From Escherichia phage FL31: a DNA stretch of 64,000 nucleotides. Position 1 is the first letter of the stretch. The number at the start of each line of letters is the position of its first letter. The stretch is from the sequence record PP400782. The stretch is one strand, 5' to 3'. The notes under the pieces are model-generated. The model did not search any database. It saw nothing but the letters and a program-made list of their open reading frames with translations, and had not been told where the DNA came from. Positions 4,376 through 62,958 of the stretch are shown one piece after another. Position numbers and translations under genes: made by a program.

Positions 4376-5185
4376 CTAGTCGTTGAACCTTGCTTTGCAA
4401 TTGTCGCCGTGCCATCGTTTATATGTTGATGGTGATAAATCTTTCTTATCACAATATGGACAATTCAATTGAATTCTATTTGGATTTAATTTACATCTAT
4501 CATTATGTTTTAGATAAAATCCAGGACCTTTACCAATGTGACCGCAGAAATCACATGTGATTTCTTTTTGTGCAGGATGGGTTCCGTTCTTAACCATTTC
4601 TAATGTTTTTGCTGATGTTCTTTTCTTATGGTCTTCTGACAAGAAATGATGTGAACCGTCATTTACCCGTTTTGATTGAGTTTCTGACTGCATTTTACCA
4701 CCGCAAAATACATGAGTACCTTCTTTTATAGCTGCAATATTGCGTTCTTTAACTTTTGCAATATGCTCAGCTTGTTGAAAATTATGTATACCTAATGCAA
4801 CTCTATTTAAATTAGATTTACGCTGTATTTCACCGTCTAAAAGATGAAATGTACCATTTTCTATCTTAGATTTAATAGAGGCAATATTTTTAGCTCGTAC
4901 TTCAGGGATATTAAAAATCTGGATTTCTCTAGATTTTGCGGCTTTAGAAGCTAATTCAGAAATTTCTTCAGGAGAATATTTCATTCTAAGCTTTATAGCG
5001 TGACAAGCCTGGTAATCTTTTTGAGCTAAATGTATATCATAATGTTCCTGTATAGAAAGGCACATCAAATTATCTAAATCATTATTTTCACGGTTACCGT
5101 CTTTATGATGGATTTCGTATGTTCTTCCATCAGAATCTTTAGGTATAGGTCCGTTAGCATCTATCCAAATTTTTCTATAGTTCAA
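4376..5185 (-). CDS. intron-encoded HNH homing endonuclease (I-TevIII-like, full length 269 aa)
   Basis: HNH motif EIHHKDGNRENNDLDNLMCLSIQEH; repeated NIAAIK..GTH modules; C-terminal Cys-rich zinc finger; apparent TTG start with AAGAGG SD. Confidence 0.8.
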   Translation of the reverse strand: MNYRKIWIDANGPIPKDSDGRTYEIHHKDGNRENNDLDNLMCLSIQEHYDIHLAQKDYQACHAIKLRMKYSPEEISELASKAAKSREIQIFNIPEVRAKNIASIKSKIENGTFHLLDGEIQRKSNLNRVALGIHNFQQAEHIAKVKERNIAAIKEGTHVFCGGKMQSETQSKRVNDGSHHFLSEDHKKRTSAKTLEMVKNGTHPAQKEITCDFCGHIGKGPGFYLKHNDRCKLNPNRIQLNCPYCDKKDLSPSTYKRWHGDNCKARFND

Positions 5186-19911: not shown

Positions 19912-22900
19912 ATGGCTACTTTAAAACAAATACAATTTAAAAGAAGCAAAACTGCAGGAGCACGTCCTGCCGCTTCAGTATTAGCCGAAGGTGAATTGGC
20001 TATAAACTTAAAAGACCGTGTACTTTTTACTAAAGATGACCAAGGAAATATTATTGATCTGGGTTTTGCTAAAGGTGGTAGTATTGACGGGAATGTTATT
20101 CATACTGGCAATTATAACCAAACTGGCGATTATACTTTAAATGGCACCTTCACTCAGACAGGTAATTTTAATTTAACCGGTATTGCTCGAGTAACTCGTG
20201 ATATTATTGCCGCTGGGCAGATTATGACTGAAGGCGGAGAACTTATTACAAAAAGTTCAGGTACAGCGCATGTTCGTTTTCATGATTCAGCTAATCGTGA
20301 ACGTGGAATCATTTATGCCCCGGCTAATGATGGATTAACTACGCAAGTAGTTAATATCCGCGTTCAAGACTACGCCGCCGGTGATGAAAGCACCTATGCA
20401 TTTTCAGGCAGTGGCCTATTTACTTCACCTGAAGTATCAGCATGGAAATCTATGTCAACTCCTCAGATTTTGACAAATAGAGTTATTACTAATAATAAAT
20501 CTACGAGCGATTATGATATTTATTCTATGGCAGACAACGTTCCATTGTCTGAAAGCACTACTGCTATTAATCATCTCCGTGTTATGCGCAATGCTGTAGA
20601 CGCTGGTGTATTCCATGAAGTTAAAGATAATGATGGAATAACTTGGTATACCGGAGATGGCTTAGACACTTATCTTTGGTCGTTTACCTGGTCCGGCGGA
20701 TTGAAAGCAGGCCATTCTATTTCTGTTGGTACTCCTGGTGGCAATAAAGGATACTCTGAATTAGGGACTGCTTCAATTTCTCTTGGCGATAATGATACCG
20801 GGCTAAAATGGCATCAGGATGGATATTATTTCAGCGTCAATAATGGAACGAAAACATTTTTATTTAGCCCTAGCGAAACAACTAGCCTAAGAAAATTTGT
20901 AGCTGGATATTCTACTAATGGAACAGATTTAACTACTCCTCCGACTGAAAACTATGCATTAGCCACTGTTGTTACTTACCATGATAATAACGCGTATGGT
21001 GACGGTCAAACTCTTTTAGGTTATTATCAGGGCGGTAATTATCACCACTATTTCCGCGGTAAGGGTACTACAAACATTAATACTCATGGCGGTTTGTTAG
21101 TTACTCCTGGTAATATTGACGTTATTGGTGGTTCTGTTAATATCGATGGTAGAAATAATTCTTCTACACTGATGTTTAGAGGTAACACAACTGGTGCTAG
21201 TTCAGTTGATAATATGACAATTTCTGTATGGGGTAATACGTTTACTAATCCTAGTGTAGGTAATCGTAAAAACGTTATGGAAATTTCTGACGCAACTAGT
21301 TGGATGAGCTATATTCAAAGACTTACTACTGGTGAAGTAGAAATGAACGTCAATGGTTCATTTGAATCATCTGGTGTTACTGCTGGAAATAGAGGAGTTC
21401 ACACAACAGGCGAAATTTCATCCGGAGCAGTGAATGCGCTTCGCATTTGGAATGCAGATTATGGAGCTATTTTTAGACGTTCAGAAGGCAGTCTTCATAT
21501 TATTCCAACTGCTTATGGTGAAGGTAAACATGGTGATATCGGTCCACTTCGCCCGTTTAGTATGGCTTTAGATACCGGTAAAGTTACTATTCCAGATTTA
21601 CAATCAAGTTACAATACGTTTGCTGCTAACGGTTATATTAAATTTGTTGGTCATGGAGCGGGTGCCGGCGGTTATGACATTCAATATGCTCAAGCGGCCC
21701 CTATTTTCCAGGAAATTGATGATGATGCTATAAGCAAATATTATCCTATTGTTAAACAGAAGTTTTTAAACGGCAAAGCTGTTTGGTCTTTAGGTACTGA
21801 AATTAATTCGGGTACATTCGTTATTCATCATCTGAAAGAAGATGGTTCACAAGGCCATACGTCTCGTTTTAATCAGGACGGTACTGTTAACTTCCCGGGT
21901 AACGTTCAAGTTGGTGGTGGCAGAGCTATTATTGCTGAAAATGGTAACATTTTCTCTGATATCTGGGAAACATTTACTTCAGCTGGAGACACTACAAATA
22001 TTCGTGATGCGATAGCTACTCGTGTTTCTAAAGAAGGTGACACGATGACTGGTAAATTGACTTTATCTGCTGGAAATGATGCCCTTGTTTTAACTGCAGG
22101 CGTGGGTGCTTCATCGCACATCCGTAGCGATGTAGGTGGTACAGGTAACTGGTATATAGGCAAAGGCGGCGGCGATAATGGTCTAGGTTTTTACAGTTAC
22201 ATTACACAAGGCGGTGTATACATAACAAATAATGGCGAAATATCGCTTTCTCCTCAAGGTCAAGGAACATTTAATTTTAATAGAGACCGCCTTCATATAA
22301 ACGGTACACAATGGGTTGCGCATAAATCTGGCGCCTGGGGTGACCAATGGGGTTTAGAAGCTCCTATATTTGTAGATTTTGGATCCGTCAGCAATGACTG
22401 CTATTATCCTATTATTAAAGGAAAATCTGGTATTACTAACGAAGGATATTTTTCCGGCGTAGATTTTGGTATGCGACGCATTACTAATACCTGGGCGCAA
22501 GGTATTATTCGTGTAGGTAACCAGGAAAATGGCCATGACCCACAGGCTGTCTATGAATTCAATCATAACGGCACTTTTTATTCTCCTAACATGGTTCAAA
22601 CCGGCGCAAAACTATCAGCTGGTGGTGGTGACCCGGTATGGACTGGACCGTGTCTTGTTATTGGTGATAATGACACTGGGTTAGTTCATGGCGGTGACGG
22701 CCGAATCAATATGGTTGCCAATGGTATACATATTGCAAACTGGGGAGCAGGCTATCAATCTCATCCTGGGCTTTGGGATTCAACCGGTGCTTTTTGGACA
22801 GAAGTTGGAAGAGCTATCGTTTCTCATGGGCATCTCGTTCAGGCAAATGATAGTTATTCAACGTTTGTCCGTGATGTTTATGTCCGTTCTGATATTCGTG

Positions 22901-23223
22901 TTAAAAAAGACCTTGTTAAATTTGAAAATGCTTCTGAGAAGCTTTCTAAAATTAACGGTTACACTTATATGCAGAAGCGAGGCCTAGATGAAGAAGGTAA
23001 TCAGAAATGGGAACCTAACGCCGGTTTGATAGCTCAAGAAGTTCAAGCTATTTTGCCTGAATTAGTTGAAGGTGACCCTGATGGCGAAGCTTTACTTCGT
23101 TTGAACTATAACGGTGTAATTGGTTTAAATACAGCTGCAATCAATGAGCATACTGCAGAAATTGCGGAACTTAAATCAGAAATTGAAGAACTTAAAGCAT
23201 TAGTTAAATCATTGTTAAAATAA
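19912..23223 (+). CDS. 37: long tail fibre distal subunit gp37 with C-terminal intramolecular-chaperone (peptidase S74-like) domain
   Basis: 1103 aa; N-terminus [22 protein letters not shown]; C-terminal ...SDIRVKKDL...[15 protein letters not shown]... coiled-coil tail. Confidence 0.9.
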
Positions 23224-23228
23224 TAAGA

Positions 23229-23242
23229 GGGGCTTCGGCCCC
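23229..23242 (+). promoter_or_regulatory. UUCG hairpin between genes 37 and 38, next to the gene 38 SD
   Basis: ggggc-UUCG-gcccc followed by ttGGAGGtttatATG; no U run, so not a typical terminator. Confidence 0.4.
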
Positions 23243-23254
23243 TTGGAGGTTTAT

Positions 23255-24028
23255 ATGGCAGTAACAGGACCATGGGTAGGATCGTCTGCAGTAGTTAATA
23301 CAGGACAAAATTGGATGGGTGGCGCGGCCCAACGATTAAGAATGGGCATTCCGTTTTGGATGAGTAATATGATAGGTCGATCTGTTGAAATAATTCACAC
23401 GCTTGGAGCAGACCATAACTTCAATGGCCAATGGTTCCGAGATAGATGTTTTGAGGCAGGTAGTGCACCTATAGTGTTTAATATCACTGGAGATTTAGTA
23501 TCATATTCTAAAGATGTTCCTTTATTCTTCATGTACGGAGATACACCAAATGAATATGTTACTTTGAATATTCATGGTGGAGTTCATATGTGGGGACGAG
23601 GTGGTAACGGTACTGTAAACGGAAACCCAGGTACAAATGGCGGCGATGTAATCCAAAATGATATCGGCGGAAGACTTCGTATTTGGAACTATGGCGTTAT
23701 TGCATCAGGCGGCGGTGGTGGTGGTGCAGTGTCATTACAGAATAGCTGGGCGCCAAATGCTACAGCAGGTGGCGGTGGTGGTAGACCATTTGGCCTCGGC
23801 GGCGGTGGCGTTAATTGGCCGGGTGGTAATGCTAGTTATGACGCCCCGGGCGGTGCCGGTTACACTTCCCAATTCGGCGGAGGCAATGGTGGTGATGCTG
23901 GAGGTCGGGGCGGAGATGGATGGGGTAATCACTTATCTAGATCTGGCGGTGGTGCTCCTGGCAGAGCAGTATTCGGAAGTTCACCGTCATGGGGTGCTAC
24001 AGGCACAATCTACGGCTCCTGGATTTAA
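23255..24028 (+). CDS. 38: receptor-recognising adhesin gp38 (T2/T6 type, glycine-rich motifs)
   Basis: N-terminus [21 protein letters not shown]; several poly-Gly GRM blocks; C-terminal TGTIYGSWI. Confidence 0.85.
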
Positions 24029-24046
24029 ACGATAATACCTCTCAAT

Positions 24047-24054
24047 TATAAATA
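24047..24054 (+). promoter_or_regulatory. late promoter TATAAATA for holin t
   Basis: Exact TATAAATA 19 nt upstream of the t ATG; GGGAGG SD. Confidence 0.7.
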
Positions 24055-24073
24055 TTGATAAATGGGAGGTAAT

Positions 24074-24733
24074 ATGGCAGCACCAAAAGTATCATTTTCG
24101 CCTAGTGATATTTTATTTGGGTTGCTAGACCGCATTTTCAAAGATAACGCCTCTGGAAATATTCTTATTTCCAGAGTTGCTGTTGTAGTTCTTTTGTTCC
24201 TAATGGCACTAATATGGTACAAAGGGAATATTTTTATGGATTATTACGTGAGGTCGAAATATGATACTTACACAGAAGTAATTCAAAAAGAAAGAAATAC
24301 ACGATTTGAATCTGCGGCTTTAGAACAACTACAAATAGTCCACGTCACATCAAGGGCGGATTTTAGTTCGGTGTATTCTTTCAGACCTAAAAATCTAAAT
24401 TATTTCGTCGACCTTATTGCGTATGAAGGTAAGTTACCTAGCACAGTAACTGAAAAATCTATGGGAGGATTTCCTGTCGATAAAACGACAGCAGAATATT
24501 CGGTCCATTTAAGTGGACTTCACTTTACTTCTAAAACAGATTTTGCTTTCTTACCTACCAAATCAAAAACTCCGGAACTGGCATATATGTATAGTTGTCC
24601 TTACTTCAATTTGGATAACATATATGCTGGAACTGTTTCTATGTATTGGTATAAGGGGTCAGATGTGTTAAATGAAGAACGCTTGGCCGCAATATGCAAC
24701 CAAGCTGCAAGGATATTAGGGCGGGCTAAATAA
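24074..24733 (+). CDS. t: holin T
   Basis: MAAPKVSFSPSDILFGLLDRIFKDN...AARILGRAK matches recalled T4 holin along its length. Confidence 0.9.
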   Translation: MAAPKVSFSPSDILFGLLDRIFKDNASGNILISRVAVVVLLFLMALIWYKGNIFMDYYVRSKYDTYTEVIQKERNTRFESAALEQLQIVHVTSRADFSSVYSFRPKNLNYFVDLIAYEGKLPSTVTEKSMGGFPVDKTTAEYSVHLSGLHFTSKTDFAFLPTKSKTPELAYMYSCPYFNLDNIYAGTVSMYWYKGSDVLNEERLAAICNQAARILGRAK

Positions 24734-56408: not shown

Positions 56409-56957
56409 TTAACGAGCCCATTTGATGATTTCTGTAATCAAACCATTACGTTCGCTTGCATTAAATCCTATAACTTTGTTAGCACCATCATGATTAAGTA
56501 ATTGATACGTTTGGATTTTGTTATGAATTGCAAACTCTTCAAAATATGAAATGACTGTATTAAAACCGAATGAAGACAAAGTAATAAGGTCGTCTTCAAA
56601 ACTTTCAGTCATTTCGTTACGTGTTAAAATAATTGTGAACACATCATGGTTTTGGCAAAGACGAACATAGTCCTGTTCATAAACGTCAAGAATCGAGTCC
56701 GCATCTTGTCGAATACGTCCATAAACCCAGTTACTAATATATCCACGGTCTAACAGATAAATCTTAGTAGGGTCTAAATAATTCAACATCGTTTCGAAAC
56801 AGCCGACTTCATTTCGAGACTTAACATCGAAACGCCCATCAACTGTTCGTTTAGGGAAATCAATCTTTACATATCTTTCACTAATTTCCATTATGTCATT
56901 AATGAAAGTTGTTTTACCAGCATTATCTGGGCCATCTACTAAAATAATTTTAGCCAT
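56409..56957 (-). CDS. P-loop NTPase, nucleoside/nucleotide kinase-like (182 aa)
   Basis: Walker A ILVDGPDNAGKTT at the N-terminus, dNK/thymidylate-kinase-like layout; between 42 and uvsX. Confidence 0.55.
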   Translation of the reverse strand: MAKIILVDGPDNAGKTTFINDIMEISERYVKIDFPKRTVDGRFDVKSRNEVGCFETMLNYLDPTKIYLLDRGYISNWVYGRIRQDADSILDVYEQDYVRLCQNHDVFTIILTRNEMTESFEDDLITLSSFGFNTVISYFEEFAIHNKIQTYQLLNHDGANKVIGFNASERNGLITEIIKWAR

Positions 56958-56958
56958 T

Positions 56959-57858
56959 TTATTCCTCGATTACGACATCTTCATATTTAGGTATATTATA
57001 CGGCGAAGAAATTAAAGCGTTAAAGTAGATGAACTCACCAAGACCTGGATGGAATACTTCTTCAGGATTTTCGAAATATTGAATCTTCGGACGTCCTTTA
57101 AGAATTTGATAGTACTCAGTTTTAGTTGGTTTAAAAATTCGAATCAACGCTTCTTCAGGATACTTATTTCTGTCGAAGCTATTATTTGGATCAGTTATAT
57201 AAAGCGGTTGACCTAATTGAATTGCGCATTCAACAACTTGTTCAAAACGATAACACGGGTCACTAATTCGAAATGGATGAAAAATACCATCTAGATGAAT
57301 AGGAGCCAAATCACCTACAAGACGCTGCATGATGGAAGGACGTATAACTTTCTGCGTTACGATAATCTTATTACCATCTGCACCAGCGTTAACCAGCACT
57401 TCTTTTTGACGTTCATTCAACACAGTAGTTTGAAGTGAACGATTAACCGACAACATATCAGTTTTTAAGAATTCATCAATATAAAAACGTGGTTTATTAG
57501 GGTCTGCAGTGATATTGAAATTGAATTCCACATCAAAAGCGCCGTCATATCCAGTGATATCTGTGATTAGAAAATCACAGTCATAATAAGCAATTAATGA
57601 ATCAACCACAAATTCATTTTCAGACCAGAAATATTTACGAGTGTTATACGCGTTATCTTTATACCATAATGGAACAAACTTAAATTCTGGAAAAAGACGT
57701 TCGCATTCTTTAATATCAGATGCATTACGTGGATATGTAATCACATCACCCGGATTAGCACGGTGCAAATGAAGTTGGAAGTTGCCATCCTTAAGGATAG
57801 CATACTGTCCAGTTTCATAAGACCGCATACTCAAAATAGGTACGCGGAAAATAGCCAT
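56959..57858 (-). CDS. hypothetical protein (299 aa) at the locus where T4 encodes beta-glucosyltransferase
   Basis: ORF translationally coupled to gene 42 (TAATG); no recognisable beta-gt similarity. Confidence 0.5.
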   Translation of the reverse strand: MAIFRVPILSMRSYETGQYAILKDGNFQLHLHRANPGDVITYPRNASDIKECERLFPEFKFVPLWYKDNAYNTRKYFWSENEFVVDSLIAYYDCDFLITDITGYDGAFDVEFNFNITADPNKPRFYIDEFLKTDMLSVNRSLQTTVLNERQKEVLVNAGADGNKIIVTQKVIRPSIMQRLVGDLAPIHLDGIFHPFRISDPCYRFEQVVECAIQLGQPLYITDPNNSFDRNKYPEEALIRIFKPTKTEYYQILKGRPKIQYFENPEEVFHPGLGEFIYFNALISSPYNIPKYEDVVIEE

Positions 57859-58574
57859 TAGTCAAGGAATCCTTTAACATAATCAAAATCACGTTCAAAC
57901 ACATGGGCACTTACCATGGTATGAGTATAATCACCAACTTCTACATCACATTCGTTAGCGATATAATGAAGTAATTTTCCTTGGAGATAAAAATCCAACT
58001 GCATAACAACAGCACAGTTCTGAGAACGCATATGACAGTGGGTATAAAGCTTACCATCACGAATATAATAAGTCACTGAGTCAGTACATGGATATTCAAG
58101 CGTTTCGTCTGAATCAAGCAAAGCCTGATCAGAACTTTCTAGAATTTGGAACACAACTCTTCGGGAGTTAGGCTTCTCTTTAAGTTCTTTTAGAAGAGCT
58201 GGTAATTGGGCCGCAATGCGAGGACCATAGAAAGTGTTGAAGTTCGCCGGCAAAACATCTGATTTTGGTTTAGAAATAAATTTAGCGACATTAGGATATG
58301 CCTTAAACGCTTCTTCTGCGTTGGTACCACCAGAAATCATAAACTTCCAGAAGTCTTCAGCATATTCATAAGAGATGCGGTTAATACGTGGGTCGGTCAT
58401 TTTGAATGATGATGGAGTGTCAACAACTACTGTCATAGACCCAATTTCATTACAACGTCCAATACGAGAATCAGTTACGAATTCCGGGTTTTCTAAAATT
58501 TCACGATTGACTGCTTTAAATGCGGTTTGAAAATCTGCGGCTTTGATATATTTCATTGTGTTATGTTTTCCCAT
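57858..58574 (-). CDS. 42: dCMP hydroxymethylase-like enzyme (thymidylate-synthase fold; gene 42 equivalent)
   Basis: TS-family core YPCTDSVTYYIRDGKLYTHCHMRSQNCAVVMQLDFY with Asp at the position that is Asn in thymidylate synthases (cytosine-type); synteny after gene 43. Confidence 0.75.
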   Translation of the reverse strand: MGKHNTMKYIKAADFQTAFKAVNREILENPEFVTDSRIGRCNEIGSMTVVVDTPSSFKMTDPRINRISYEYAEDFWKFMISGGTNAEEAFKAYPNVAKFISKPKSDVLPANFNTFYGPRIAAQLPALLKELKEKPNSRRVVFQILESSDQALLDSDETLEYPCTDSVTYYIRDGKLYTHCHMRSQNCAVVMQLDFYLQGKLLHYIANECDVEVGDYTHTMVSAHVFERDFDYVKGFLD

Positions 58575-58593: not shown

Positions 58594-58618
58594 ATTATAT
58601 ACTCAATTCGTAAAGCTT
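58594..58618 (-). promoter_or_regulatory. middle promoter candidate for gene 42 (MotA box-like GCTTTA + 11 bp + TATAAT)
   Basis: Minus strand aaGCTTTAcgaattgagtaTATAATaaattgtattGAGGtaaacATG. Confidence 0.4.
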
Positions 58619-58856
58619 ATTTGAATTTCTTGGCAATGTTGATATAACGTAAAGCTTCACCATCAATACTTCCAAGAACACTATGAAGAAATGCATCGGC
58701 GTAGTATTCCAATTGAACAGGTTCTTTAATCACTTTAGCCGCTTTAGTTTCAAACAGGCCCATCAGGGCCTTTTTAAGAATTTGTTCATTAGTGTTCAGA
58801 TTCATAGTCAAAATCTCTTCATTAAGTTGGTGGTTAAAAGTTTTTCTAGAAATCAT
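58617..58856 (-). CDS. hypothetical protein (79 aa)
   Basis: ORF overlapping the end of the upstream gene. Confidence 0.35.
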   Translation of the reverse strand: MISRKTFNHQLNEEILTMNLNTNEQILKKALMGLFETKAAKVIKEPVQLEYYADAFLHSVLGSIDGEALRYINIAKKFK

Positions 58857-60013
58857 TCCGGGTACCTCAAAGCGTCATCAGAGTTAGTTATATCAATAAT
58901 AGATATAGAGTTTTCTGCTAACCCGTTTTTAGATAATTGACGTTTATAATATCTTTCACAATATGTACACGTCGTCCCGCAGATTTCATTAGCACAATCG
59001 AAATCTGGATGTCTGAACCACCTTTTTTCTAAAAAGCCATCTAACAAAGAGGTTTCAATATTTACTGTATGTGAAAACTCAGTTTCGTTTTCAAGAGTGA
59101 AAATAGTCTCTAAAGGCTTCCACAGTTCTAACAAATTACCTTCAAACTTTTCAGAAGCGTATGCTTCAAGAACTTTCAAAATGTAGTCTGTGCTACCTGT
59201 ACGTCCTGAAACTTTGAATTGAGTGATACCAATATCATTATAAAGTTTCAAATCTTGAGGACGAACAAAACGAGTTCTCAACCAGTTAAATGGGTCTGTA
59301 TCACGAGCTTTAATACAGTGCTGCATAGGATATCCGTTTAAGGATTTAGCATCATCGGCTGTAACATCAGTACTATGGAAAATATAGCAAGAGTCACGAT
59401 AGCTACAATGTGTTGTATACCCTTTACCAGCATTAGAACAGAACTCATTTACAAGAACTTCAAATATTATATTGTTCTTATTGCAAAACTCTGCTGCACG
59501 CTTCAGGAAAGAAACTGAACGGTTCTTATGAATTCCACAGCAGACCTTTTTGATATTATACTGGTCATGCAAGTATTTGATTTGAGTTACAGCATCGACA
59601 TGTAGAATTGTTGAAACTTCAATCTCAATGTCTTTATTGACTTCACGAACAATTTCCATAACAACAGGGTTAGCGATAGTAATACGCCATACGCCTATTG
59701 ACCAAAGATACTGAACATAATCCTGAATAGCTTTCTTCTTCCACTCAACTAGTTCTCTTTTTGAACCAGGATTTATCGTGTTGAGTGTATAGTTAAAGCA
59801 AATACCTAATTCGTTACAACGTTTAACGTAATCTTCTAACATCTTTTTGTCAACGTCAGGAAGCCTAAAATCAGGTCTGGCTGCTACAAAAGCCATTTCT
59901 CTTGTAGAGCCGTATACTTCATTTATCAAGCTATTAGGATAAGTTTTATTGAGCTCTACGATTTTATCAAGAAGAGCTAAATCAAAATTCGTTCCGATTT
60001 TAAAAGTATTCAT
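58853..60013 (-). CDS. hypothetical Cys-rich protein (386 aa), possible metal/Fe-S binding; part of the sugar cluster
   Basis: Cys clusters CCGIHKN, FCSNAGKGYTTHCSYRDSC, C-terminal CANEICGTTCTYC; no confident family assignment. Confidence 0.5.
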   Translation of the reverse strand: MNTFKIGTNFDLALLDKIVELNKTYPNSLINEVYGSTREMAFVAARPDFRLPDVDKKMLEDYVKRCNELGICFNYTLNTINPGSKRELVEWKKKAIQDYVQYLWSIGVWRITIANPVVMEIVREVNKDIEIEVSTILHVDAVTQIKYLHDQYNIKKVCCGIHKNRSVSFLKRAAEFCNKNNIIFEVLVNEFCSNAGKGYTTHCSYRDSCYIFHSTDVTADDAKSLNGYPMQHCIKARDTDPFNWLRTRFVRPQDLKLYNDIGITQFKVSGRTGSTDYILKVLEAYASEKFEGNLLELWKPLETIFTLENETEFSHTVNIETSLLDGFLEKRWFRHPDFDCANEICGTTCTYCERYYKRQLSKNGLAENSISIIDITNSDDALRYPE

Positions 60014-60069
60014 TTTTTTGCATCTCGCGTTAATTAATGCGATGGTTTTTGCAGGTCTTACTTAAATTA

Positions 60070-60471
60070 TTATAGATTCGGTTTATATGATTTAAATGTT
60101 TCGAATTCGCCTTTATTCATAAGAGCTTTGAATTCGTCAGGACGCATAGCTTTGTCGTCGATAATCCAATCATATACTGGTTTATGTGTTAGCAAATTAT
60201 GGTACTTCAAGCCAATGTTCGCCAAGTTCTGAATCAGACTTGGGAGAATGTCAATTGCTATACGACCAGGACCTACTGACTTCATACCGCGAGCAGTGTA
60301 AAGCGTTATGGTATGCCCTGCATCATACAGGGCATTAATGGCAGTCACCATTTCGACGTCTGGTTTGAAGTTCACGTAATCACGATTGTTATTCCACTCT
60401 GTTATACAATCATCGACATCAAAACAAAGATTAAGCATGTTTTCTACACGGTGCATTAGATTCGTTCCCAT
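60070..60471 (-). CDS. HAD-superfamily phosphatase (small, sugar-phosphate phosphatase-like)
   Basis: HAD motif I FDVDDCIT; motif II ITLYTAR; motif III/IV K...WIIDDK. Confidence 0.6.
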   Translation of the reverse strand: MGTNLMHRVENMLNLCFDVDDCITEWNNNRDYVNFKPDVEMVTAINALYDAGHTITLYTARGMKSVGPGRIAIDILPSLIQNLANIGLKYHNLLTHKPVYDWIIDDKAMRPDEFKALMNKGEFETFKSYKPNL

Positions 60472-62141
60472 TGATGAGTGATATCGCCACCGATTGGACG
60501 ATAGGAAACACCAGTTTCTTTATCAGTTAGTACCCATTTACCAGGATTTTTTGTAATCAGAGTAGCCGTTACAGGTTCTGCTACGTCATAACTAATAGAG
60601 CCGTCTTGAAGTACACGGCCCATGTTACGTAATTGCTTAGTCAGAAGTTCCATACCTTTATAATATGCGGCTACCGCTTTAAGTGGATTATTCTTGAAAT
60701 AACCACCTAATGCAATCCAGATAATTGCTACAGCCAAATGATGATATTCATTAAACGAACTCAGCTTTCCATATTTGTAAACTAATGGATTGATGTTAAT
60801 AGTCACATTACAAGTTGTTTCATCAATAGTAAACTGTCCCCAGGTCGGATTAGCATTGAATTCATCATAACCTGAAACAGCATAAAGCACTTTAGCTTCA
60901 TCATACAATTTTGGCCCGTAAATCTTGGTTTCGCCAAAATATCCACGAGGGTCGATAAACTTGACTTCGCCGTTATCAGTAATCATAGTATTACTGAAGT
61001 TCGGGTCACCATGAATAACAGAGTACTGTCCCTGAGAACGGTTATGATAACGAATAAGGTGTTCTAAAGCTTGTTTCAGCATTGGCTTCAGACGTCTAAT
61101 CTTAGTGTAGTTCACATGTGTGATTTTACCAAATGAATCAATCAATGGTTGAATGCTTTCACAACGATCAATAACTTTCGTATAGAATTCTTTAGTGAAA
61201 TCACGACGAACAGTTTCAGGACTTACAAAATAAGTGTCTGTGCTGAATTTCAGTGCATCTAAAATTGCATCAACAATTTGTGGACGAGCAAGACTTGATT
61301 TGGATTTAATATATTCAAATGCCGGCTTACCTTTAATGCGTTCCATTTCAAAGTTATTTTCATTAACAGAAACTAACTGAGGAACTGAATCTGATTTCAC
61401 TTTCAAATACCACGAAATCTCATCTTTCTGAAGAGCTCGTCCCTGTTCGGTTAATGCGAATTTAGTTACAGTTTCTTCACCAATTTCAACTGCATTAAAA
61501 CTACGATTAAGTTCACGAACTTCATGGGCCTTTTCAAGTTTAGGCATATCACCTAAATCAATTAGATTCATAAGCTCTGATTTATTGAATGCGCTGCCGT
61601 AAAGGAATTCTACGAAATCACGTCCTTTGCAGTATTCATGAATTTCCTCATCAGTAGAACCCATATAGAATTCCCAGTCTTTGAACTGATAAATTCCTAC
61701 AACATTACCACCTGTTGAACCTACGTTAGTGATATTTTCACCGTCGAAATTATACCGACATTCATCACCCTTAACATAGATTGCGTTAACATTCCAAGAC
61801 CATGAACCAAAATCAGGAATAATATCACACCAGTTAACAATTACGTTATGGCCGTCTAAATCTTTGTGTAATTTAGCAAGAGCATAAGCAGAACCATACG
61901 CTTCATCAACTGTACGAATAGTCACATTGAACCCTTCTTGCTCACAATAAGCTCGAACAGTTTCAGCAAATTTTGAATGAACTACTACAATAATTTCATC
62001 TGCGCCAAGGTCAGAATAAATTGTATACAAATTGCTCAGAATAGTGTCTTGTTTATAGTTAACAAGCACCTTAGGAATATGATGCGTTATTGGATACAAA
62101 CGAGTTGCCAGTCCAGCACCAAGAATAACAGCTTTTTTCAT
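60456..62141 (-). CDS. bifunctional sugar-1-phosphate nucleotidyltransferase (N-terminal) / sugar kinase (C-terminal, APH/ChoK-like fold)
   Basis: N-terminal GAGLATRL nucleotidyltransferase signature; C-terminal Brenner-type IHGDPNFSNTMI and VKFIDPRG kinase motifs. Confidence 0.7.
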   Translation of the reverse strand: MKKAVILGAGLATRLYPITHHIPKVLVNYKQDTILSNLYTIYSDLGADEIIVVVHSKFAETVRAYCEQEGFNVTIRTVDEAYGSAYALAKLHKDLDGHNVIVNWCDIIPDFGSWSWNVNAIYVKGDECRYNFDGENITNVGSTGGNVVGIYQFKDWEFYMGSTDEEIHEYCKGRDFVEFLYGSAFNKSELMNLIDLGDMPKLEKAHEVRELNRSFNAVEIGEETVTKFALTEQGRALQKDEISWYLKVKSDSVPQLVSVNENNFEMERIKGKPAFEYIKSKSSLARPQIVDAILDALKFSTDTYFVSPETVRRDFTKEFYTKVIDRCESIQPLIDSFGKITHVNYTKIRRLKPMLKQALEHLIRYHNRSQGQYSVIHGDPNFSNTMITDNGEVKFIDPRGYFGETKIYGPKLYDEAKVLYAVSGYDEFNANPTWGQFTIDETTCNVTININPLVYKYGKLSSFNEYHHLAVAIIWIALGGYFKNNPLKAVAAYYKGMELLTKQLRNMGRVLQDGSISYDVAEPVTATLITKNPGKWVLTDKETGVSYRPIGGDITHQWERI

Positions 62142-62322: not shown

Positions 62323-62958
62323 TCATTGTTCGCCTCGTAACATGGCACCTAGTGCACCGCCTGGATGGAACTTAAGGAAATCATTAGAGGTAAATCCACG
62401 TTCAGACGAAAGGTTGATAGCAAACGTATCGATAAGCGCTAACAATAATGTAGTGGACATTGTCGGAGCTAAAGAGTTCTCGTCAACTTCTACCGCGATA
62501 CCGGTACAGAACGTATAATCAAAAAGAGCTTCGTATTCTTGTGGAATGTCAGGGTTACAATGTAACAGAATCTGTTTAACCTGAGGACGAATCATACGAA
62601 GATGTTTAGCAACACCTATCATTTCTTCAGTCTTACCAGAACGACTGATGTGAACTAATACATCATTAGGTGCAATAAATCCTGCGTCACCATGAGAATA
62701 ATGCCCAGTGTTCAAGTACATACTTGGGATACCGAGTGAAGCAAAAGTCTCGGAAGCTTTAGTTGCGATATTAGCGTTCTTACCAACACCTGTAATAATT
62801 ACTCGGCTTTCATAATTACTAAGTCCCGGGCGTCGAAGAGTTTCTAGAATAGCATTATAACGAGCAGGGTTTTGACTAATTACTTTGGCCATAGCGGCCA
62901 AAGAAGAAGCTTGTTTTATGATTGCGTCAATAGCGATAGTAATAGGAGTAGTTTTCAT
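62323..62958 (-). CDS. SIS-domain sugar-phosphate isomerase (KdsD/KpsF arabinose-5-phosphate isomerase-like, lacking CBS domains)
   Basis: VIITGVGKNANIATKASETFASLGIPSMYLNTGHYSHGDAGFIAPNDVLVHISRSGKTEE parallels the recalled KdsD SIS core (GKSGHIG...ATFASTGTPS...HGDLGMV...AISNSGES). Confidence 0.7.
   Translation of the reverse strand: MKTTPITIAIDAIIKQASSLAAMAKVISQNPARYNAILETLRRPGLSNYESRVIITGVGKNANIATKASETFASLGIPSMYLNTGHYSHGDAGFIAPNDVLVHISRSGKTEEMIGVAKHLRMIRPQVKQILLHCNPDIPQEYEALFDYTFCTGIAVEVDENSLAPTMSTTLLLALIDTFAINLSSERGFTSNDFLKFHPGGALGAMLRGEQ

Follow-up and report, generated by a model that had tools for sequence, protein, structure and literature searches.

The question raised by the arabinose cluster of Escherichia phage FL31 is what a cysteine-rich protein is doing in the middle of it. 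The window analysed here, 64,000 nucleotides of sequence record PP400782, carries at 58853..60013 on the minus strand an open reading frame (ORF) that starts with ATG and encodes a protein of 386 amino acids. This protein is a member of the peptidase U32 superfamily. Judged from its sequence and its genomic company, it seems on balance to be an anaerobic (O2-independent), prephenate-dependent C5-hydroxylase of deoxycytidine monophosphate (dCMP), encoded close to an O2-dependent enzyme that makes the same product.

The window comes from an RB69-like T-even phage of the genus Mosigvirus, and the cluster is 98-99% identical to those of phages AV111, APCEc01 and JK45. The DNA of RB69 carries β-D-Araf-(1,3)-α-D-Araf (Araf, arabinofuranose) directly on 5-hydroxycytosine (5hoC), and not arabinosyl-hydroxymethylcytosine (Lee et al., NAR 2026, PMC13326640). 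According to the same paper, cytosine is fully replaced at the nucleotide level in phages of this type. The thymidylate synthase (TS) homologue gp48 binds flavin mononucleotide (FMN) and acts as a 5-hydroxy-dCMP synthase, with oxygen that comes from O2 as seen by 18O2 labelling; this flavin enzyme is the only step of the pathway that requires O2. The deoxynucleoside monophosphate (dNMP) kinase gp159 phosphorylates 5-hydroxy-dCMP, 5-hydroxycytosine reaches DNA in vivo, and arabinosylation takes place on DNA (shown for phage DLP3 and predicted for RB69). A crystal structure and an in vitro reconstitution of the gp48 homologue of HY126 by He et al. are known here as cited in that paper. The RB69 counterpart of the FL31 protein, gp50, has a table entry only in PMC13326640, with the guess 'sugar or heterocycle reductase' and a structural match to 5d88. 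The paper names the RlhA and TrhP routes solely as not using gp48 homologues, and it does not remark that gp50 belongs to the family of RlhA and TrhP. In the searchable full-text literature no paper was found that connects phage U32 genes with prephenate or with making 5hoC anaerobically.

The Pfam model Peptidase_U32 (PF01136) matches residues 94-286 of the protein with 42.2 bits against a gathering score of 22.4 (E 7e-11). The same family is the precomputed annotation of nearly all homologues, and the protein is assigned to PHROG 5757. RB69p050 is 99.5% identical to it, and the Mosigvirus orthologues as a whole 99.5-100%. A preliminary description of this locus had named structure prediction as a way to check its reading. 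The AlphaFold model (AF2, from a 108-sequence alignment) has a mean predicted local distance difference test score (pLDDT) of 93.5 and alternates strands and helices in a TIM barrel followed by a C-terminal extension. Its top Foldseek match in the PDB is the U32 protein Mk0906 (5d88; E 4e-7, TM-score 0.68 normalised by target length), followed by generic TIM barrels. Sequence searches of the PDB with the protein and with the family profile gave no relevant homologue, the sole match, BIM1, being spurious.

The cysteine-rich character claimed by that description is borne out. The ORF is exact, and both cysteine motifs that it quoted are present in the translation: CANEICGTTCTYC at residues 340-352 (nt 58958-58996) and FCSNAGKGYTTHCSYRDSC at residues 191-209 (inside nt 59315-59446). 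The 13 Cys of the protein amount to 3.4% of its residues, against 1.15% across the 47 long ORFs of the window, among which it ranks second; the highest Cys content belongs to a 229-residue ORF at 4376-5065 on the minus strand (9 Cys, 3.9%). Homologues were aligned in sets of 121 and 108 sequences reaching down to ~46% identity. Nine Cys (C158, C192, C203, C209, C233, C340, C345, C349 and C352) are invariant in these alignments, and C177 is conserved at 98%. Since nine Cys stay invariant over this range of identity, the pattern is not due to chance. The invariant residues of the U32-motif region are E190, C192, C203, C209, H213 and C233, of which C192, C203, C209 and C233 would hold a [4Fe-4S] cluster. 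A second metal or Fe-S site is possible at the C-terminal cluster, where the ligands would be C340, C345, C349 and C352.

The family profile was compared with the four E. coli U32 paralogues by hhalign in local mode. RlhA ranks first (E 3e-6 over 263 columns), followed by TrhP (~1e-3) and UbiU (6e-3), and UbiV gave no significant match to the profile (E 0.16). In the RlhA alignment, E190, C203 and C209 of the phage protein fall on E161, C169 and C176, and the phage segment SCYIFHS stands against QCYISHA. The U32 signature E-x-F-...-C-x(5-6)-C-x-[LIV]-S plus K-[IV]-x-G-R is present as N-E190-F-C192...C203-SYRDS-C209-YIFHS and F-K267-V-S-G270-R271, invariant or nearly so, with EFFIHGALC-VAYSGQ-CYISHA and FKIEGR as its counterparts in RlhA. 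The loop from E-F to the first aligned Cys is five residues longer in the phage protein. With the Pfam match, the match to 5d88 and the alignment of E190, C203 and C209 to functional residues of RlhA, the earlier suggestion of a metal or Fe-S centre gains support, and the protein is predicted to bind an Fe-S cluster. Orthology to RlhA was considered and rejected: Pfam finds no DUF3656 in the 386-residue phage protein, RlhA has ~650 residues, and the C-terminal Cys spacing differs. Orthology to any other E. coli U32 paralogue was rejected as well, on the missing DUF3656, a UbiU score far under its cut-off and a non-canonical Cys spacing.

The characterised members of the family are RlhA (ho5C2501 of 23S rRNA), TrhP (ho5U34 of tRNA) and UbiU/UbiV (three ring hydroxylations of ubiquinone). 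All are needed for O2-independent, prephenate-dependent hydroxylation of an aromatic ring, and two of them act on C5 of a pyrimidine. UbiU and UbiV are [4Fe-4S] proteins, and RlhA and TrhP need Fe-S clusters to function. In RlhA, C169 and C176 are essential, the substitution E161A nearly abolishes function, the C-terminal C580 and C611 are needed too, and both prephenate and Fe-S biogenesis are required (Kimura et al., PMC5727448). Labelling with 18O-shikimate identified prephenate as the oxygen donor in the UbiU/V pathway. In air, O2-dependent counterparts serve the same steps: TrhO takes the place of TrhP, and the flavin hydroxylases UbiI/H/F that of UbiU/V. With its one O2-needing step, the RB69 pathway would have in gp50 and gp48 a pairing that mirrors the flavin and U32 pair UbiI/H/F and UbiU/V, as well as TrhO and TrhP.

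Chorismate mutase, whose product is prephenate, is a recurrent neighbour of the U32 gene in phages. Enterobacter phage Entb_45 and Serratia phage LC53 each have a gene that overlaps the U32 stop codon and bears the annotation chorismate mutase. Matches to Pfam CM_2 above the gathering score (E 1e-8 to 2e-11) verify the enzyme in six U32-carrying lineages: Entb_45 (Kanagawavirus), LC53 (Winklervirus), Klebsiella phage CP-p-KP-21072, Pectobacterium phage PM2 (Mosugukvirus), Yersinia phage TG1 (Tegunavirus) and Shewanella phage Thanatos-2. Weaker tblastn matches suggest it in Proteus phages too, which brings the count to at least seven lineages. The chorismate mutase gene comes directly after U32 or, in PM2 and TG1, one small ORF later, and even in Thanatos-2, where the cluster is rearranged, the two genes are still adjacent. 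The phage enzymes keep the residues aligned to the catalytic Arg, Arg, Lys, Glu, Ser and Gln of the E. coli enzyme. In a tblastn search of 50,697 phage records with the Entb_45 enzyme, 51 records match; all 51 belong to U32-carrying lineages, and in each the match adjoins the TS homologue or the U32 gene. The most economical explanation for this coupling in a phage would be the supply of prephenate as cosubstrate, and such a recurrent neighbour points to base hydroxylation.

The distribution of the gene with respect to oxygen points the same way. U32 is present in 221 phage records, whose named host genera (Escherichia, Shigella, Klebsiella, Serratia, Proteus, Yersinia, Enterobacter, Providencia, Edwardsiella, Pectobacterium and Shewanella) are enterobacterial or Shewanella, all facultative anaerobes. 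For the TS-like hydroxylase there are 373 phage records, including 57 of Acinetobacter and ~20 of Rhizobium. These two genera are aerobes, and both fall outside the top ten U32-bearing host genera (cut-off 3 records). Acinetobacter phage Maestro has the SIS, nucleotidyltransferase-kinase, HAD, TS and glycosyltransferase cluster without U32, its HAD gene being directly followed by the TS homologue, and Acinetobacter phage DLP3 has the same layout (PMC13326640). Among 185,579 species genomes, 23 U32 relatives were found. They come from Erysipelotrichales, Oscillospiraceae, Lachnospiraceae, Romboutsia, Clostridia, Tannerella, Phocaeicola, Gastranaerophilaceae, Desulfobacteraceae, Ruminiclostridium and Cellulosilyticum and from uncultured Planctomycetota, candidate division BRC1 and Woesearchaeota; nearly all 23 belong to lineages made up mostly of strict anaerobes. 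For the anaerobic synthesis of deoxynucleoside triphosphates (dNTPs) the RB69 lineage has nrdD and nrdG as well. The top host genera of phage NrdD homologues are again all facultative anaerobes, with Acinetobacter outside the top ten. All these correlations are uncorrected for phylogeny.

The gene also occurs in more distant viruses. A scan of IMG/VR gave 48 loci, of which 28 non-redundant ones were kept, including three metagenomic contigs; they lie on large uncultivated viral contigs and encode U32 homologues 40-56% identical to the phage protein. When the neighbouring genes were clustered, two operon layouts recurred. One runs glycosyltransferase, SIS, nucleotidyltransferase-kinase, HAD, U32, with a second glycosyltransferase and a fusion of 3-deoxy-D-arabino-heptulosonate 7-phosphate (DAHP) synthase with chorismate mutase as optional members, in that order, before HAD. 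The other runs glycosyltransferase, glycosyltransferase, U32, DNA polymerase III alpha. The fusion (DAHP synthase, Pfam E 6e-24; CM_2, E 2e-24) lies at most two genes from U32 in six of the 28 loci (L048:8332-9387, L044, L046, L047, L032 and L058), and a metagenome-assembled genome of Gastranaerophilaceae shows the same arrangement near its U32 gene (L070, ~6922). It is an independent chorismate mutase architecture in a different phage lineage, and would be a shikimate-pathway auxiliary metabolic gene of viruses.

A hidden Markov model (HMM) of the DNA glycosyltransferase of the RB69 gp46:47 type matches in 13 of the 28 distant loci, directly upstream of U32 in six. In these six, tblastn found no homologue of a sugar-activation gene within 10 kb. 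Two further contigs have a Tmk-like kinase, a uracil-DNA glycosylase and DNA polymerase III alpha near U32, one of them with a dCMP deaminase as well; a third has a 5'-nucleotidase, a deoxynucleoside kinase and a nucleoside deoxyribosyltransferase, and a dUTPase adjoins U32 in some distant loci. The company of U32 is thus DNA-glycosylating enzymes and nucleotide metabolism, and sugar activation need not be part of it. The O2-dependent hydroxylase is lacking from these surroundings: the HMM of the TS-like enzyme found nothing within 10 kb of U32 in the 28 loci, one weak match (L034) excepted.

From these observations we infer the following function. The U32 enzyme would convert dCMP to 5-hydroxy-dCMP by a mechanism such as has been proposed for UbiU/UbiV, TrhP and RlhA. 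On the model of UbiU/V, a two-electron oxidation of the pyrimidine would be coupled to decarboxylative aromatisation of prephenate. The C4 hydroxyl of prephenate would pass to C5 of cytosine, phenylpyruvate and CO2 would be released, and the Fe-S cluster or clusters would carry off the two electrons. Pathway logic suggests dCMP as the substrate because cytosine is completely replaced at the nucleotide level. The product would then follow the known route through dNMP kinase, DNA polymerase and the DNA arabinosyltransferases. The protein would be an anaerobic isozyme that backs up the nearby FMN- and O2-dependent 5-hydroxy-dCMP synthase, and would let a phage with arabinosyl-5hoC in place of all its cytosine replicate in anoxic hosts such as gut E. 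coli. A broader proposal is plausible though more tentative. Phages may carry a self-contained module for O2-independent pyrimidine hydroxylation, made of U32 and a virus-encoded supply of prephenate (a monofunctional chorismate mutase or the fusion with DAHP synthase), which would act as a backup in T-even-like phages of facultative anaerobes and as the sole hydroxylase feeding DNA glycosyltransferases in uncultivated phages of strict anaerobes.

Several findings weigh against the assignment as a dCMP hydroxylase. An HMM built from the six phage chorismate mutases finds none in the window, Mosigvirus having lost the gene, so prephenate would have to come in these phages from host PheA/TyrA, as it does for the host's own U32 enzymes. 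One Klebsiella phage likewise has U32 without chorismate mutase. Dhakavirus coliphages (e.g. Bp7) have the TS homologue and no U32, so U32 is not obligatory in enteric hosts. Similarity to the E. coli U32 proteins is weak, and the only NCBIfam match, to the UbiU equivalog NF047963, scores 18.5 bits against a cut-off of 440. The canonical spacing C-x6-C-x15-C-x3/4-C, seen in TrhP (170/177/193/197) and RlhA (169/176/192/196), is not kept by the phage protein, which has C192-x10-C203-x5-C209-x23-C233. UbiU and UbiV also depart from the canonical spacing, with ligands that we take to be 169/176/193/232 and 39/180/193/197, respectively. In 12 of the 28 distant loci U32 ends a sugar-activation operon (SIS, nucleotidyltransferase-kinase, HAD), which would fit a role in sugar metabolism too; an operon devoted as a whole to making a glycosylated hydroxypyrimidine would show the same association just as readily. 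Finally, no U32 hydroxylase has so far been reconstituted in vitro (PMC10990095).

The evidence from prephenate and anaerobiosis would fit equally well a U32 hydroxylase that uses prephenate on another substrate, whether cytosine in DNA (as a post-replicative mop-up), dUMP, dCTP, or host tRNA U34 or 23S C2501. RlhA and TrhP act on polymers, the dCMP deaminase and dUTPase beside some distant homologues would suit a uracil nucleotide, and other distant homologues adjoin a kinase-methyltransferase fusion. Such a substrate is nevertheless unlikely for the FL31 protein. With 386 residues it is compact, and Pfam detects no RNA- or DNA-binding domain in it. The full replacement of cytosine already takes place at the nucleotide level, and RB69 encodes a predicted dCTP pyrophosphatase (PMC13326640, Table 1). 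The host already has RlhA and TrhP, and the dCMP-level hydroxylase whose activity the protein would duplicate is encoded two genes downstream.

The preliminary description had suggested for the protein a role in sugar or nucleotide modification (an epimerisation, redox or dehydration step) that would determine the final sugar. The nucleotide and redox wording comes close to the hydroxylase proposed here; the sugar part is not supported. A reductase, epimerase or dehydratase acting on an arabinose precursor, free or as sugar nucleotide, is suggested by the gene's place in the arabinose cluster, with the HAD phosphatase on one side and the TS homologue on the other, by the commonness of TIM barrels among sugar enzymes, by the table entry for gp50 quoted above, and by the label 'epimerase' given to a cluster member in PMC13390438; the one observation that keeps it alive is the position of U32 at the end of the sugar operon in the 12 distant loci. 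It is improbable all the same. RB69, which has U32, and DLP3, which lacks it, carry the same α-D-Araf-5hoC core with the same β-D-Araf extension. UDP-arabinofuranose synthesis is already accounted for by an isomerase, an AfhE-like kinase/pyrophosphorylase and an AfhF-like HAD phosphatase, the last proposed to convert Araf-1,5-bisphosphate to Araf-1-phosphate (PMC13326640); these three suffice in vitro according to the work of He et al. as that paper cites it. Maestro has the same sugar, TS and glycosyltransferase genes without U32, and the six distant loci with U32 after glycosyltransferase genes have no sugar-activation homologue nearby. To our knowledge no U32 member acts on sugars, and the linkage to chorismate mutase has no rationale in sugar chemistry. 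That the protein is a genuine peptidase or collagenase, as GenBank annotates it ('peptidase U32', 'collagenase-like protease') and as the collagenolytic activity reported for PrtC and HP0169 (cited second-hand in PMC5727448) might suggest, is very improbable, given that the U32 family has no known protease catalytic mechanism (PMC5727448), that nucleotide and DNA-modification genes surround it in every lineage examined, and that its conserved residues are Cys clusters typical of Fe-S sites.

For the proposed dCMP hydroxylase, the closest known system is RlhA (YdcP), the 23S rRNA 5-hydroxycytidine-2501 synthase. It shares the Pfam family, is the best E. coli match, and carries out the chemistry proposed here, hydroxylation of cytosine at C5; C-terminal Cys are essential in RlhA, and the C-terminal cluster is invariant in the phage family. 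The two differ in that RlhA has 653 residues, DUF3656 and a ribosomal-precursor substrate, whereas the phage protein has 386 residues, shares only ~20% identity with RlhA, and would presumably take a free deoxynucleotide as substrate. TrhP (YegQ) and TrhO offer the arrangement proposed for gp50 and gp48, an O2-independent U32 enzyme and an O2-dependent one that make the same 5-hydroxypyrimidine, and both are kept by organisms that live in oxic and anoxic conditions. Their substrate is tRNA, however, TrhO is of the rhodanese family rather than a flavin-dependent TS homologue, and the similarity of TrhP to the phage protein is weak. UbiU and UbiV, with UbiT, are U32 [4Fe-4S] proteins that replace the flavin/O2 hydroxylases UbiI/H/F under anoxia, much as gp50 would replace gp48. 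The UbiU segment at C232 (GYPTLC) resembles, by eye, the phage segment at C233 (GYPMQHC), but UbiU/UbiV form a heterodimer that acts on a lipid quinone with UbiT as accessory, whereas the phage encodes a single U32 protein.

The 5-hydroxy-dCMP synthases RB69 gp48, DLP3 gp80 and that of HY126 make the product proposed for the U32 enzyme, and RB69 gp48 shares its cluster and pathway. They have an unrelated fold, use FMN, take oxygen from O2, and are present in phages of aerobes without U32. The T4-type ribonucleotide reductases NrdAB (aerobic) and NrdDG (anaerobic) are a precedent for an aerobic and anaerobic pair at one step of dNTP supply in T-even phages, by analogy only, as chemistry and protein families differ. 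Mk0906 of Methanopyrus kandleri is the only solved U32 structure found; it has 247 residues, is 11% identical to the phage protein, and is without the C-terminal Cys-rich extension.

If the assignment is right, a gap in the 5-hydroxycytosine pathway would be resolved, the sole known hydroxylase being one that needs O2 while coliphages live in the anoxic gut. Prephenate-dependent hydroxylation by U32 enzymes, known for RNA and ubiquinone only, would extend to DNA precursors and to viruses, with a new substrate class and a virus-encoded supply of the oxygen donor. The FL31 protein would be the first U32 enzyme known to act on a small soluble molecule, and thereby the best candidate for a first prephenate-dependent hydroxylation in vitro and the most tractable system for U32 enzymology. 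Chorismate mutase and DAHP synthase would become phage auxiliary metabolic genes with a defined purpose. On the broader proposal, much O-glycosylated 5-hydroxypyrimidine DNA would exist unseen in anoxic habitats, as a large reservoir. Therapy cocktails make use of Mosigvirus phages, and the protection of their DNA under anoxia would depend on the U32 gene.

The features of the neighbourhood are collected in Table 1. All its genes lie on the minus strand, in the order DNA polymerase gp43, SIS isomerase, nucleotidyltransferase/kinase, HAD phosphatase, U32, 79-residue ORF, TS homologue, 299-residue glycosyltransferase, Tmk-like kinase and uvsX.

Table 1. Features of the U32 locus in the FL31 window (positions in the 64,000-nucleotide stretch)
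Feature	Position	Strand	Basis
SIS-domain arabinose-5-phosphate isomerase (RB69 gp55)	62323..62958	-	Pfam SIS, E 1e-9; annotation of relatives
Bifunctional nucleotidyltransferase/kinase (RB69 gp52:53, AfhE-like), UDP-arabinose synthesis	60456..62141	-	Pfam NTP_transferase and weak kinase-family matches
HAD-family phosphatase (RB69 gp51, AfhF-like)	60070..60471	-	NCBIfam capsule-biosynthesis phosphatase, E 5e-13
U32-family protein, predicted Fe-S (~RB69 gp50)	58853..60013	-	Pfam PF01136, PHROG 5757
U32-motif region, residues 190-233, predicted [4Fe-4S] ligands	59315..59446	-	Translation, invariance among homologues, RlhA alignment
C-x4-C-x3-C-x2-C cluster, residues 340-352	58958..58996	-	Translation; four Cys invariant
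79-residue ORF (RB69 ORF049c, PHROG 8601)	58617..58856	-	ORF; its ATG overlaps the U32 stop codon (ATGA)
TS homologue (RB69 gp48)	57858..58574	-	Pfam Thymidylat_synt; at least 97% identical in most Mosigvirus records
299-residue homologue of RB69 gp46:47, putative first DNA arabinosyltransferase	56959..57858	-	ORF; PMC13326640 Table 1
Thymidylate-kinase-like nucleotide kinase (RB69 gp45)	56409..56957	-	Weak dTMP-kinase NCBIfam match; PMC13326640 Table 1

The preliminary description had set the protein between the HAD phosphatase and 'gene 42'. The first neighbour is as it said; on the other side the 79-residue ORF intervenes, and the gene called 42 encodes the homologue of RB69 gp48, an FMN- and O2-dependent 5-hydroxy-dCMP synthase and not a dCMP hydroxymethylase (PMC13326640). 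Many GenBank relatives of this gene are still labelled dCMP hydroxymethylase or thymidylate synthase. The glycosyltransferase (299 residues) and the nucleotidyltransferase/kinase (561 residues) are both intact in the window. Each is split into two ORFs in RB69, for which Lee et al. blame sequencing errors (PMC13326640). In phage LC53 a gene for a NUMOD3-containing putative homing endonuclease (L010:3854-4492) is inserted between the HAD phosphatase and U32 genes.

The 79-residue ORF fills the slot between U32 and the TS homologue that is the site of chorismate mutase in most related phages. It has no Pfam or NCBIfam match at E up to 10 and contains no Cys. Its identification as a chorismate mutase, even a degenerate one, was rejected: besides the lack of Pfam and NCBIfam matches, it does not match the HMM of the six phage enzymes, and the catalytic arginines are missing when it is aligned with chorismate mutases. 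Homologues stand between U32 and chorismate mutase in PM2 (57 residues) and TG1 (65 residues), and the ORF family, which coexists there with the enzyme, is a separate small family, with the conserved core LFxTKA...Y[YF]ADAFxHS...RxIN[IV]xK. The product of the ORF may assist the U32 enzyme as an accessory factor.

A scan of the cluster for promoters and terminators gave nothing exceeding the expectation from shuffled sequence. A sigma-70-like TTTAAA-16-TATAAT occupies 60069-60096 (minus strand), within the gap of 56 nt that precedes the U32 start; sites of this kind are no commoner in the cluster region than in shuffled sequence, and this one carries little weight.

In Phocaeicola faecalis (L078:3044-7137) and at L002:5135-9098, genes for GP88 (PF17338), a methyltransferase, a ~267-residue protein and U32 form a conserved module, the methyltransferase being fused to guanylate kinase in the former. 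It is pure speculation that this module makes a 5-methoxy-pyrimidine nucleotide, in analogy with the TrhP/TrmR route to 5-methoxyuridine in tRNA. At L002:12151-14360 a radical-SAM/SPASM gene precedes a second, very divergent U32 paralogue (377 residues, Pfam E 1e-4), which lies ~4 kb away from the main U32 gene. A radical-SAM/SPASM gene also opens the series at L001:1-1454 and L004:681-2839, followed there by a ~400-residue glycosyltransferase-like protein and a Tmk-like kinase. In Ruminiclostridium papyrosolvens C7 (L084:3369-12855) a U32 relative of 413 residues, 29% identical, lies between two nonribosomal peptide synthetase genes and adjoins a gene for a B12-binding radical-SAM protein; anaerobic ring hydroxylation in natural-product biosynthesis is a possible role for this relative.

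Elsewhere in the window no tRNA genes were found. The region 19912-24733, which is unrelated to the U32 locus, is locally GC-rich (GC 0.445 at 22-24 kb) with positive GC skew, and carries on the plus strand a glycine-rich ORF of 1103 residues, a very Gly-rich one of 261 residues and one of 223 residues. Read by eye, these are putatively a gp37-like long tail fibre, a gp38-like adhesin and a holin, and the GC-rich composition appears to come from glycine repeats rather than from foreign DNA.

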